NCBI GenBank assembly: GCA_029258835.1
Contig: JAPDJY010000055.1
Span: forward strand, 1 to 24,452
DNA: 24,452 nucleotides
Origin: Thermoproteota archaeon
Lineage (GTDB): Archaea; Asgardarchaeota; Jordiarchaeia; Jordiarchaeales; Freyrarchaeaceae
Direction of reading: 5' to 3'
The notes beneath the pieces are model-generated. The model ran no database searches. It worked only from the letters and a program-made list of their open reading frames with translations, and was not told the origin of the DNA. The translations under genes and the position numbers were made by a program. This document shows, piece after piece, positions 141 through 3,931 of this stretch (position 1 is its first letter; each line of letters opens with the position of its first letter).

Positions 141-835
141 TAAATAAAAATTAAAACCTTGACCAGCATCGCCTACATGGGATGATCCTTTAGGGTGGAA
201 CTCGCAGCCCGCTCATAAACCATACGGCCACCAAAAAGGTTGAAATGTTAAAGCCGGAAGCTCCTCCACCATTTAGAACCCACCTCCTCCCCGTCGCCGC
301 CACCCTACCCCCATTTCCGCAACGCCTTCGTCACGCGTAAGAGAGAAACTTAACCATTTAATCATCCAGCCCTAGGAGAGAAGGGTCAAGGACGGCTCCG
401 ACAAAGTAAGGTGCCATAAGCAGAGTTAGTGGAACACTTCAGCAAGAACCAATGGAAGTTAAGCTTAGTTCGATGCCAAAAGCCACCATCCATATGAAGT
501 AAGAAAAGAGAGGAAGGAAGATGCGAAGCCCATGATGCCACCGGGGCAAATCAGCCATATTACCGCCACACAGAATTGCGTGGAATAACGGAAAGGTTCA
601 GGCTTCTCCGCCAAGCAGGCGAGTAGTGGTGTCGAGTTCGCATTGGAAGGAAATTTTCTCCTTTTTAAGTTCTCTCTGCTAAGAGAAGTCACTTGAATGG
701 AGGATATGGGGGGCTCCTAGAACCCTTTTAAGAATAATTGAGTAATTCTGACTTAGATCATTGTAACTATTAAAGAAAGTAGCCTAGAAAAATTTTTTAA
801 GATTTAAAAGGATACTTAAATCATTTAGATATGAC

Positions 836-1219
836 ATGGTGTTGTTGCAGATGTCTGAAGAGTTGATTGCTTCGGTTGCTAAGGCTTTTTCTTACACCTT
901 TAGGTTTCTAAGGGAGAACTCTCCAGGGATGAGGATTCTGCTTAAAATAGTGGGGAATGAGCTTAACGCTTACGAGGACGAGGAGCTCGCTTGGATCATT
1001 GTAAGGGACCCCGAAAGGTTTTACATGGCTCTCCTCAACGTTCTAGGTTCACGGATCGTCACGAACGCTTACGCTTACATTATCATGAACACGTTCTTCA
1101 GGAGAGTTAACGTTAAGGCGTCGATGTTTAAGGTTTCAACGGCTATCCACAGGGGGAGCATGGAAATGTGGCGTAGGCTCATGAGGGAGGTCATGGATAA
1201 GATTTCAGGGGAAGGCTAG
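836..1219 (+). CDS. Hypothetical protein (weak resemblance to small helical archaeal DUF3227-like proteins)
   Basis: 127-aa ORF after an AT-rich promoter-like tract (~790-825), convergent with and overlapping the stop of the ATPase. It contains a [12 protein letters not shown] motif. The start may be ATG 851. Confidence 0.65.
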
Positions 1220-3438
1220 CCGGGGTAGTGTGCACCCGCCCTTACAGGTACTGTCAGCGCGTTAGCCACCACCGCCAAGCTTAACCCTAGGTTCCCTACA
1301 CCTATGGCTATCCAGAGTGTTGTTAGCCCTATGATGGTTAACGCTACGAGAGCCAGCTTTATAATAATCGACGCGGCGACGTTCTCCTTCACCACCCTCA
1401 TTGTCTTCCTGCTTAAATCTAACAGGTAAACTATCTTTGAGAGCTTATCTTCCATCAGCGCTATGCTGGCTGTCTCGAGTGCCACGTCGCTCCCCATCGC
1501 CCCCATCGCTATCCCGACGGCCGCCCTTGCGAGGCTTGGAGCATCGTTGACCCCATCGCCAACCATCACAACACCATATTTCCCATCTAACCCCTCTACT
1601 ACCTTAACCTTCTCGTGGGGTAGCAAGTCGGGGTTCACGCTTGATAGGGTTTTTATGGGTAAACGGTTTTGGTCTATCAAGCGTTTCCCCGTCATCGAGG
1701 CGGGCGCCTCTGTTAGGGCTTTCGGGGTAACCCCGGAGCCCCACATCCGAAGACTCCACCCACAGGCCACCCTGTGGCCAGACCAGCACCCACAAACACC
1801 TACCAAACATTTAACTGTTTCGCAAGGCGTAGTACTCGTCGACTCCGAGCTCTTTAGCCACGGTTCTGACAGCTTTCTCGTTGTCACCACTCACTATAAC
1901 GGCCTTCATCCTCCTTCTCTTAAGCTCCGTAACACGGTAGTATGCGTCATCCTTAATGGTATCCTCGAGAACTATTACGCCCATTAGGGTGCTGTCTGAC
2001 CCGACGAACACCATGGTTCCGCCGTCAATGCTTGGGATGGTCGCTCCATCGAAGAGCTTCCTGTTGCCTACAAGGTAACGTACACCGTCAACTTTCCCCG
2101 CGACACCCTTACCCGGGATGACCGTGAATTCCTCGACCTTTCCGAGGGTGACCCCGAGCCGGGAAGCCTCCTCCACCACCGCTTTGGCTATCGGGTGCTC
2201 CGAGAAGAACTCGAGGGAGGCTGCAACCCTTAAAACATCTTCTAGGTTGCCGTCGGAGTTTAACGGGATGACCCTGGACACCTTCAGCCTTCCCTCCGTT
2301 AACGTTCCAGTTTTGTCGAAGGCGAAAGCCTTAATCCGGGATAAGGTCTCAACGTAGGCTCTGCCTTTAACCAGTACGCCTTCCCTTGCAGCCCCGGTGA
2401 TGGATGAAACCATCGTTACGGGGGTTGATATGGCTAGGGCGCACGGGCAAGATACGACTAGGAGGATGAGCGCCCTGTAAATCCACGGCGTTAACGGATG
2501 GCCAAACACCAGCGGGGGACCGCTGCCACTAGGAAGGCTGTGAGGATTACGAGTGGGGTGTAGTAGCGGGAAAACCTGTTAATGAACTTTTCAGTCGGAG
2601 CCCTCCTCTTCTCTGCTTCCCCGATGATCTTCACTATTTTCGAGTATAGGGTTTCGCTGGCAGGTTTCGTCACCTTAACCTTAATGTAGCCCTCATTGTT
2701 CATTGTCCCGACGTAGATCTCGTCGCCAACAGCCTTCCTGACCGGGACGGACTCGCCGGTTATCGATGACTGGTCGACGCTTGTCTCGCCTTCAACAACC
2801 ATCCCATCCAGAGGAATCTTCTCTCCAGGCTTAACCAGGACCACCTCCCCAACGCCTACACTGTGAGCGTGCACGAGCACCTGCTCACCGTCCCTTAGCA
2901 CCGTTGCAACGTCGGGGGCGGCCCCCATAAGCTTCTTAACAGAGCCTTTAACGCGCCCCTCAGCGTACTCCTCCAGCAGTTCAACCAGCATGAAGAGTAT
3001 TGCTACGGATGCACCCTCCTCAAGGTGTCCTATGGCGAAAGCCCCAACTATGGCGACGGTGACGAGAAGGTTAATCGTGACACGCCTCCCCTTAACCAGA
3101 TCCCTGACACCCGCCACGACGATCTGGCAGCCTGAAGTGGCTGCTGCCGCCGCGAAGGGCAACTTCACCATTAAAGGCTCCCAGGGGGCAAGCGCCGGAA
3201 GGGAAAGGGTTGACGATAAGTACTCTAGCAGTTGAAGGTAGACTCGCTGGGGAAGGAGAATGTACGAGTTGGCATAATAGTGTTCAAGCAGGAACCCTGC
3301 CCCCATCAGGACGGCGGAGACAGCTATGACAGCTACCTGCCTACCTAAATGCTTCTCCTCTCCTGCTTCCTCCAATTCAACCCTGCAAACGGGGCACTCG
3401 GCTTCAAGCAGGTGCAAGCGGCACACCCACGTAAGCAT
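1216..3438 (-). pseudogene. Heavy-metal-translocating P1B-type ATPase (CadA/ZntA-like, P1B-2), disrupted
   Basis: Three ORF pieces carry, in order, TGES, SCPCAL, DKTGTLT, EHP, SGDN and GDGVNDAP. Break 1 is a 1-bp shortfall in the G5 run at 2514-2518 (restores AAVPPLVFGHP). Break 2 is a 196-bp insertion at 1630-1825 (removal restores DEYYA-D-LLPHEK). The P1B-2 Lys is present (IIKL), but the last-helix Asp appears replaced by Asn (GNLG). Confidence 0.92.
1630..1825 (-). mobile_element. 196-bp non-autonomous mini-element (MITE-like), probably derived from an IS200/IS605- or IS607-family tnpB element
   Basis: Precise insertion between codons GCC and GAC of the ATPase, with a 2-bp GG ambiguity at the junctions (1630-1631 / 1826-1827) and no terminal inverted repeats. 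It has at least four hairpins (1637-1647/1674-1684 perfect 11 bp; 1697-1710; 1716-1741; 1760-1777). The minus-strand reading HRVAC...[13 protein letters not shown] resembles archaeal TnpB C-termini. The insertion itself is certain; the family is inferred. Confidence 0.8.
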
Positions 3439-3502: not shown

Positions 3503-3532
3503 CTTTTATCAAACATGTGGATGGTGATCTGG

Positions 3533-3931
3533 TTGACCGTGATAAGCGTCTCCCTAGACCCGATCCTTCTCAAAAGACTCGACCAGTTCATAGCGGAAAG
3601 GGGCTACTCTAGCAGGTCCGAGGCTATAAGGGACGCCGTCAGAAACTTCCTCTCCGAGTATGAGATAAGAAGAGCTGAGAGAGGAAAGGTGATCTCAGCG
3701 ATAATAATAATGTGGGAGTATGAGAGAAGGGAGGTCGACGAGCAGCTTGCAAGGCTACGCCACGAGTACGACGAGATAGTAACAGGAAACATGCACATGC
3801 ACCTGGCAAGAACGTATTGCCTCGAAATACTGGTTGCTGAGGGAGAGCTCGAAGAAATATACAAGCTAATAGGCAGGGTGAGGGCGATAAAGGGAGTGCA
3901 GCAGGTCAAGTACACTTCAGTCCAAATATGA
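3533..3931 (+). CDS. nikR: NikR-family nickel-responsive regulator (RHH + ACT-like domain)
   Basis: N-terminal RHH (VISVSL...LD.FI..RGYSSRSEAIRDAVR). The four square-planar Ni ligands are spaced as in NikR (RHEY...MHMHL....CLEI, equivalent to H76/H87/H89/C95). Likely start is TTG 3533 after GGTGAT; the ORF track starts at 3515. Confidence 0.9.
   Translation: MTVISVSLDPILLKRLDQFIAERGYSSRSEAIRDAVRNFLSEYEIRRAERGKVISAIIIMWEYERREVDEQLARLRHEYDEIVTGNMHMHLARTYCLEILVAEGELEEIYKLIGRVRAIKGVQQVKYTSVQI

Follow-up and report, generated by a model that had tools for sequence, protein, structure and literature searches.

A probable IS607-type mini-element with an omegaRNA-like scaffold in a broken P-type ATPase gene of an Asgard archaeon

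The stretch of DNA analyzed here (the window, 24,452 nt) comprises positions 1 to 24,452 of contig JAPDJY010000055.1 in assembly GCA_029258835.1, a genome of the Freyrarchaeaceae (Asgardarchaeota; Jordiarchaeia). Near its start lies a heavy-metal P-type ATPase gene on the minus strand, present in three pieces (2491–3438, 1811–2509, and 1216 to ~1629). An insert at 1630–1825, oriented the same way as the gene, separates the middle piece from the C-terminal piece and accounts for the split annotation of the ATPase. Removing these 196 bp in silico and translating the minus strand yields a continuous P-type ATPase frame, which aligns without gaps to eight orthologous ATPases from related genomes (e.g., VDEYYAELLPHEKV), all of them free of the insert. 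Because of this gapless alignment, the insert is assigned a length of 196 bp without target duplication, and the adjacent Ala codon, GCC, is assigned to the host ATPase; the alanine is conserved in the orthologues. The boundaries are ambiguous by 2 nt only, which read CC on the minus strand (the tnpB-sense strand, as described below) and GG on the plus strand of the window. An earlier reading of the sequence, referred to here as the original prediction, held that deleting exactly these bases rejoins the ATPase frames and that the insert has neither terminal inverted repeats nor a target duplication, only a 2-bp overlap; the sequence and the orthologue alignment bear it out.

The insert is one of a family of repeats. 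In its own genome (2.72 Mb in 91 contigs, 94.7% complete), the ~196-bp unit occurs 23 times in unrelated flanks with 82–90% identity to the window copy, and all 23 copies begin and end exactly where the query does (positions 1 and 196). Copies with identical ends in differing flanks are what the original prediction had proposed to look for. Mean pairwise identity among the copies is 89% (range 81–97%). The window copy is among the few inside a gene, with 15 of 22 copies lying between genes, outside long open frames, and no conserved neighboring gene or orientation was seen around the mini-element copies. The terminal inverted repeats and target-site duplication of a classical miniature inverted-repeat transposable element (MITE) are both absent.

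The repeat is a composite of two transposon ends. Seven further sites in the genome match only the first 123 query bases (window 1630–1752), and all of them are 3′ ends of tnpB genes. One of the seven genes is intact (C9:45896–47077, 394 aa). Its product carries the Pfam domains Cas12f1-like_TNB and OrfB_IS605; its D181 and D350 correspond in the alignment to D191 and D361, catalytic residues of ISDra2 TnpB, and E268 lies in an EDL motif. In these parents tnpB ends in TGA at a distance of 5 nt from the terminus of the element. Query positions 124–196 are not found in the tnpB 3′ ends and represent the left-end part: full-length copies begin GCC|TTGTGTAGC..., and the mini-element begins GCC|TTGCGAAACAGTTAAAT....

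The identity of the parents places the mini-element in a transposon family. In the full-length copies, the left end is followed by a gene for a 58-aa protein and then by tnpB. This protein is a MerR-type helix-turn-helix (HTH) domain (Pfam HTH_17, 4e-16), clearly related to the N-termini of ~10 serine-recombinase (Resolvase) TnpA genes that the genome also carries; it lacks the catalytic domain. A further copy, C56, retains Resolvase-coding sequence, although frameshifted; it starts GCTTCGCGAAACTGTAAAT (GCTTCGCGAAACTGTAAATATTTGGTAG), nearly the left end of the mini-element, and terminates in a hairpin followed by CTGAACCCC, like the mini-element right end. Since the parents have a MerR-type HTH and the Resolvase-bearing C56 copy shares both ends, the mini-element is assigned to the IS607 family. 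Other features of that family are present as well, namely the lack of terminal inverted repeats and target-site duplications and a tnpB that is the second gene of full-length members. The sequence at 1630–1825 is thus very probably an IS607-type mini-element. The original prediction had read it as an internally deleted IS607 element, with a minus-strand coding tail derived from tnpB and full-length parents to be found elsewhere, and each part of that reading is upheld: the element joins a 73-bp left end containing a TATA-like box to a 123-bp tnpB 3′/right end, its tail corresponds to the C-terminus of TnpB genes of the same genome, and the parents share both the tail and the MerR/HTH_17 N-terminus of TnpA.

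Genes of 55–65 aa encoding a MerR-type HTH without a recombinase domain lie directly upstream of, and overlap, tnpB at L024:291–464 (C9), L065, L066, L073, L075, L076, and L080. This arrangement of HTH alone plus tnpB, found in the own genome and in homologous elements from five or more further archaeal lineages, resembles a stable architecture more than a one-off deletion.

The flanks define a target motif. A logo of 28 left flanks, 23 from mini-elements and 5 from full-length copies, has CC in all 28, G at −3 in 27, and a pyrimidine at −4 in 26, which gives the target YGCC; tabulating upstream flanks had been suggested with the original prediction as a way to a target-adjacent motif (TAM). 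The GCC|TTG... junction is the same in homologous elements of other genomes. The right end reads ...GAACCCC and the right flank has no conserved base, so that target YGCC and right-end CCCC differ solely at position −3. The candidate TAM, taken from the flank logo only, is identical to the transposase target and distinct from the right-end terminus, as for an omegaRNA-guided element.

In published descriptions of IS607 elements, the GG core is on the tnpB-sense strand, TAMs are G-rich, and elements terminate in GG. The mini-element likewise has the same dinucleotide at both junctions, but this is CC and not the canonical GG on the sense strand. Other IS607 copies in the same genome (C64, C36, C11, and C12/C20) have right ends composed of a stem followed by (N)GAACGG or AAACGG; at the left they begin with or follow G runs. 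We read the CC core as a variant of the IS607 core rule, not as exclusion from IS607. As judged from the compared ends, the element is not inverted; its lineage has CC where the other copies have GG, in an otherwise shared end design. The GG that the original prediction found on the strand opposite the tnpB-like reading, and could not reconcile with the canonical orientation, is explained by this CC-core lineage alongside the GG-core copies.

The right-end part of the mini-element probably retains a complete scaffold of an omegaRNA, the guide RNA of TnpB. For comparison, tails were collected from the own genome and from 19 related tnpB loci of archaeal metagenome-assembled genomes belonging to Desulfurococcaceae, Baldrarchaeota, Archaeoglobaceae, Nitrososphaeria, Brockarchaeota, Jordarchaeia, Bathyarchaeia, and Sulfolobales. 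Protein identity at the related loci is 58–74% over matched segments, with the Sulfolobales locus at 42%. The distance from a conserved ATG(T/C)GGGG anchor to the element end is 94–126 nt (117 nt in the window copy), and the 123-nt tail of the mini-element begins six bases upstream of this conserved scaffold start. A terminal stem of 8–16 bp is present in 25 of 26 homologous tails, differing in sequence between subgroups and followed by (N)GAACCC(C); the sole tail without it is the degenerate C29 copy. The sense-strand fold of the insert has an energy of −80.3 kcal/mol (z = −3.2 against shuffles).

The last six bases of the element pair with a strand close to the anchor. Automatic folding of the broad MAFFT alignment recovered this pseudoknot only, as a long-range helix between positions 13–18 after the anchor and the last six bases. 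The three tail subgroups align poorly in the broad alignment, and for this reason the hairpins were counted on an alignment of close relatives and on single-sequence folds. Across the 31 tails of the close-relative alignment, pairing in the four helices amounts to 90%, compared to 32–48% in slid controls, and 7 pairs are changed on both sides, compared to 0–3. Among 29 anchored tails, 22 form all six pseudoknot pairs and 4 form five of the six; a one-base slide of the partner leaves 119 or 106 pairs of 186 instead of 165. The pair sets are GGGGUU:AACCCC in one subgroup, GGGUUC:GAACCC in another, and CCGUUC:GAACGG in GG-core copies. For the latter, the complementary strand is ~94–127 nt upstream of the terminus and reads CCGUUC (C64, C11), CCGUU (C12, C20), or, with one mismatch, CCGCUC (C36), against GAACGG or AACGG termini. 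On this evidence, archaeal IS607 tnpB tails of this kind generally have the pseudoknot.

Two structural details of the original prediction stand in part. The 11-bp stem is real (1637–1647/1674–1684) and the three further hairpins exist, while the perfection of the stem is peculiar to the window copy, as most copies have two C·A mismatches in it. A closing pair between the terminal CCCC and the proximal GGGG immediately 5′ to the terminal stem is possible in the subgroup of the window copy, but that GGGG is missing in the third tail subgroup. Because the distal GGGGUU is kept where the proximal GGGG is missing, the distal pseudoknot is preferred as the partner of the terminus. The coordinates of all features are collected in Table 1.

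Table 1. Coordinates and supporting evidence for the mini-element, its candidate RNA features, the interrupted ATPase gene, and related elements elsewhere in the genome.
Feature	Position	Strand	Basis
Non-autonomous IS607-family mini-element, 196 bp, without an open reading frame (ORF) of its own	1630..1825	-	23 copies; excision restores ATPase
Left-end-derived part, 73 bp, start TTGCGAAACAGTTAAAT	1753..1825	-	Homologous to left ends of HTH + tnpB parents and of the resolvase-bearing C56 copy
TFB-recognition element (BRE)/TATA-like box CGAAACAGTTAAATG, candidate archaeal promoter toward right end	1808..1822	-	Kept in 23/23 copies
Hairpin GGCCAC-AGG-GTGGCC, directly upstream of tnpB-derived tail	1765..1779	-	Folding; counterpart in other mini-element families
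Right-end-derived part, 123 bp, equal to last 123 nt of tnpB elements	1630..1752	-	93% identical to intact C9 copy
omegaRNA-like scaffold, ~117 nt, ATGTGGGG to ...GAACCCC	1630..1746	-	Architecture conserved in 26 homologous tails, several archaeal phyla
Hairpin 1, GGGGCU.../...AGCCCU, loop containing pseudoknot 5′ strand	1715..1742	-	94% paired
Pseudoknot 5′ strand GGGGUU	1729..1734	-	6/6 pairing with last six nt in 22/29 anchored tails
Hairpin 2, GAGGC/GCCUC	1697..1710	-	100% paired; 3/5 pairs changed on both sides
Terminal long hairpin, 11-bp stem + 26-nt loop, then GAACCCC	1637..1684	-	4 pairs changed on both sides in close group
Pseudoknot 3′ strand AACCCC, the last six element nt, including CC recombination core	1630..1635	-	Covariation
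Flank that a read-through RNA would carry as guide, GACTTGCTACCCCACGAGAAGG	1608..1629	-	Matches empty ATPase site; candidate by analogy with TnpB systems
Host target, candidate TAM 5′-CGCC-3′	1826..1829	-	GCC is the ATPase Ala codon; flank logo
ATPase C-terminal piece	1216..1629	-	Pfam Hydrolase profile positions 156–190; orthologue alignment
ATPase middle piece (phosphorylation/HAD domain)	1826..2509	-	Pfam Hydrolase 1–141 and E1-E2_ATPase 141–180
Full-length parent (58-aa HTH + 394-aa TnpB)	C9:45666-47085		ORFs and Pfam
~250-bp mini-element family	C6:3186, C33:16750, C81:1762, C82:241, C9:55567
~330-bp mini-element family	C20:22204, C66:5201, C31:28683
Further mini-element pair	C4:53494, C27:30202

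The explanation that appears probable as a whole is that 1630–1825 is a protein-free IS607 derivative composed of a left end and a tail with an omegaRNA scaffold. The tail lies at the tnpB 3′/right end, from where it would read into the flank, and the conserved fold appears to place a pseudoknot next to the guide. The guide itself, which the original prediction had located in the sequence abutting the right end, is read directly from that sequence. The mini-element split the gene by inserting, without duplication, at the CC within 5′-CGCC-3′ at the ATPase Ala codon. In the proposed mechanism, a serine-recombinase TnpA supplied in trans would move it via a circular double-stranded intermediate, with crossover at CC. 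Transcription would start at the left-end box and proceed through the scaffold into the flank, and the resulting RNA would load onto the single intact TnpB (C9; RuvC D181/E268/D350 present). Following excision, the RNA–TnpB complex would cut the empty site (YGCC, then GACTTGCTACC...), and repair from a sister copy would reinstate the element. That the mini-element works as a guide in trans today, by analogy with known TnpB systems, is a proposal held with slightly more doubt than belief.

Public sequencing data provide a view of the population. The window or part of it is contained in 19 public runs from 17 studies, mostly hydrothermal-vent and marine-sediment samples by their records, and contigs from four of these, three DNA and one RNA-library, were compared over 1000–2700. 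No joint skipping 1630–1825 is present in the contigs of these four metagenome and metatranscriptome runs, hence no empty-site allele, which the original prediction had proposed to seek, was seen. The repeat breaks contigs: none spans the right-end junction, and one (1774–2431) bridges the left-end junction. A search of relatives gave no copy of the repeat in the four sister-genus genomes, and more distant genomes yielded tnpB-tail matches only. Because the repeat is not found in the sister-genus genomes, no orthologous filled or empty site is comparable beyond the protein level.

Several observations weigh against a functional guide-RNA element. No usable transcript evidence for the window copy was found: the RNA-library contigs touching the repeat (contigs of one run) continue into tnpB coding sequence and not into this locus, and thus carry no information on the window copy. 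The BRE/TATA-like box may also be part of the recombinase site; as it overlaps that presumed site, its conservation is no proof of a promoter. The copies differ by ~11% on average, with conservation flat along the element, as under neutral decay, and several are short of one or two pseudoknot pairs. Folding energies leave the strand undecided, with the sense strand better in 13 of 26 tails. The comparison to known RNA models proposed with the original prediction gave no Rfam match, RAGATH-18 included, for the window at the gathering threshold or for parent and locus at E ≤ 5; the scans returned only two chance-level snoRNA matches. Finally, the 94.7%-complete assembly yielded no intact cognate TnpA with matching ends; its C56 copies are frameshifted or 5′-truncated.

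Much of this would be expected if the mini-element were an inert fossil, an IS607 derivative that spread in the past, inherited its RNA-like structure from the tnpB 3′ end, and is now neither transcribed, mobilized, nor used by TnpB, leaving the ATPase as a decaying pseudogene. This explanation is unlikely but has to be taken seriously. It accommodates the even decay at 89% mean pairwise identity, the weakening of the pseudoknot and terminal stem in many copies, the lack of an intact cognate TnpA with only one of seven TnpB genes intact, and the lack of an empty-site allele in the four runs; a second lesion in the ATPase, a frameshift near 2491–2509, suggests that the insertion is old. Yet the family includes a fully intact TnpB that has kept its catalytic residues, the closest copies are 97% identical, and the assembly is incomplete, such that TnpA could be missing from it. 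In addition, at least three further families keep the design of left end plus tail, which is hard to obtain by chance deletion alone.

Two other explanations replace either the transposase or the role of the RNA. The lack of inverted repeats or duplication, insertion 3′ of a conserved tetranucleotide, and subterminal hairpins are also properties of a palindrome-associated transposable element (PATE) of the IS200/IS605 type, in which a Y1 HUH transposase would move single-stranded DNA and YGCC and CCCC would be the left and right cleavage sites. The genome has two Y1 transposase genes, but both are in unrelated AT-rich IS605 elements with which the mini-element does not share its ends. The one on C31 was considered as the mobilizer and rejected, being part of a separate IS605 element outside the nearby left-end copy. 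The parents instead carry the MerR-type HTH of IS607 serine recombinases and no Y1 gene, the nearest TnpA-bearing relatives have resolvase domains, and the end design of stem, NGAAC, and core dinucleotide is common to GG-core IS607 copies with intact resolvase genes, leaving a PATE a very remote prospect. It is also highly improbable that the host has recruited the repeat as a structured small RNA or regulatory module (e.g., an outward promoter or antisense RNA) with a role unrelated to TnpB. Such a role would suit the 15 of 22 copies between genes, the TATA-like box directed outward through the element, and the slightly better fold of the antisense strand in the own genome's copies. Opposed to it are the absence of any conserved neighbor gene or orientation among the copies seen and the structure and terminus common to tnpB genes across phyla; the pseudoknot, moreover, tracks the recombination core and is thereby tied to the transposon and not to the host.

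The mini-element is not the only short derivative in the genome. The left-end start TTGCGAA(A/G)C(A/T)GT occurs 35 times, nearly always after GCC, and the further families (Table 1) each combine the same left end with a different tnpB-type tail, beginning at or a few bases before an ATGTGGGG-like point. Their ends are mostly ...GCTGAACCCC. In three families (the main one, C6/C33, and C4/C27), a short hairpin lies upstream of the tail with arms GGCCAC/GTGGCC, GGCAGC/GCTGCC, and GCCGC/GCGGC, respectively, which are changed yet complementary; this hairpin was not seen in the full-length copies. On C27, one further-family copy lies 145 bp from a main-family copy. A speculative and rather improbable extension is that these repeats form a guild of guide-RNA-only selfish elements, with at least four protein-free families and ~35 copies that share one left-end/5′-hairpin "expression module", carry lineage-specific omegaRNA scaffolds, and have no cognate transposase. 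If this were true, it is the guide-RNA cassette, and not tnpB, that would move and evolve as a unit; the cassettes would be more numerous than the one intact TnpB available to them, and the CC-core lineage would document a joint change of three things, the recombination core, the TAM, and the RNA pseudoknot.

The ATPase gene is a pseudogene on two counts, the insert and the frameshift. The frameshift, at 2491–2509 on the minus strand between the frames 2491–3438 and 1811–2509, splits Pfam E1-E2_ATPase at profile positions 136/141. An RNA-library contig (2452–2607) and a DNA-run contig (2507–2687) span it with no gap, and because contigs of both kinds of run cover the region gaplessly, the lesion is considered present in the population and not an assembly error. 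Adjacent to the broken gene is a divergent gene for a NikR-type regulator (RHH_1 and NikR_C; 3515–3931, plus strand), which suggests that the ATPase is a former nickel- or metal-responsive transporter. In the window copy of the mini-element, a 1-nt insertion abolishes the stop codon of the tnpB tail and opens a 224-aa frame (1216–1890, minus strand) that starts where the middle ATPase piece ends, traverses the entire mini-element, and continues into the C-terminal piece. This chimeric frame is probably due to chance, although the left-end box could drive a chimeric product from it. Elsewhere in the window, an AT-rich spacer at 747–829 (minus strand) has a weak C/D-box-like match to Rfam snoR09 (25 bits, E = 2.5, far under the gathering score), most likely by chance, and a tRNA scan found nothing.

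Non-autonomous elements carrying omegaRNAs are a known kind, here in a less usual family and host. Protein-free IS605 relatives of Geobacillus stearothermophilus, the PATEs, often encode omegaRNAs that need TnpB in trans (Meers et al., 10.1101/2023.03.14.532601). Like these, the window element is protein-free, keeps both ends and a guide-RNA scaffold, would depend on TnpA and TnpB in trans, and would take its guide from the right flank. In contrast, PATEs belong to the Y1 (HUH) single-strand family, whereas the window element is of the IS607 serine-recombinase family and from a hydrothermal archaeon, with a scaffold almost wholly within tnpB coding sequence (stop 5 nt from the end). Within IS607, CboIStron has the TAM TGGG, the scaffold end UCGG (DNA TCGG), and a GG core, and uses the mismatch to avoid self-cutting; engineered IS607 mini-elements without both genes are excised by TnpA, which requires no more than 40 bp of the left end and 60 bp of the right (10.1101/2023.11.20.567912). 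IS607 elements and IStrons share with the window element the lack of inverted repeats and duplications, the same dinucleotide at both junctions, and a TAM that is the target motif and differs from the right terminus only at −3. The window element departs from CboIStron in its CC core on the tnpB-sense strand (YGCC/CCCC vs. GG), in having no group I intron, and in being a natural multi-copy mini-element.

The predicted RNA compares to characterized guide RNAs in layout and not in sequence. The ISDra2 omegaRNA has a 116-nt scaffold in which −5..−3 pair with −103..−105 (PMC10097598); the window element similarly has a scaffold of ~116–117 nt overlapping the tnpB 3′ end, with −6..−1 predicted to pair with about −105..−100. 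There is no sequence similarity between the two, the IS family is different, and the structure of the window element is derived from covariation only. The TnpB of ISFba1, an IS607 element, uses a right-end RNA (reRNA; RAGATH-18-derived) of 187 nt located downstream of tnpB, with TAM AGGAG or GAGGG and pseudoknots essential for cleavage (PMC11061315). Both would be IS607-type TnpB guide RNAs with pseudoknots, but the window element has no RAGATH-18 match. In Staphylothermus marinus, single-ORF IS607 elements are accompanied by ~260-nt repeats related to their upstream region (PMC2678158). These resemble the present case as multi-copy short derivatives that interrupt genes in an archaeon of related lifestyle, with IS607 reduced to one ORF; by their description they differ in having inverted repeats and no link to a guide RNA. 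What is less expected in the window element is the CC core with a matching RNA change, a scaffold nearly all in coding sequence, and several parallel mini-element families.

For genome annotation, the mini-element draws attention to some 35 similar short repeats in this genome that gene callers are liable to misread. For the biology of the family, the mini-element would represent a natural transposon reduced to two ends and a guide-RNA scaffold, in IS607 and in archaea, where such elements have mostly been discussed for IS605. For a thermophilic TnpB, it suggests a compact, ~117-nt scaffold and a C-rich candidate TAM (YGCC). The CC-core and GG-core copies in one genome indicate that the terminal nucleotides may serve at once as recombination core, TAM mirror, and RNA pseudoknot strand. 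A change in one of these appears to be matched in the others, which provides a concrete prediction on the co-evolution of TnpA, TnpB, and omegaRNA.

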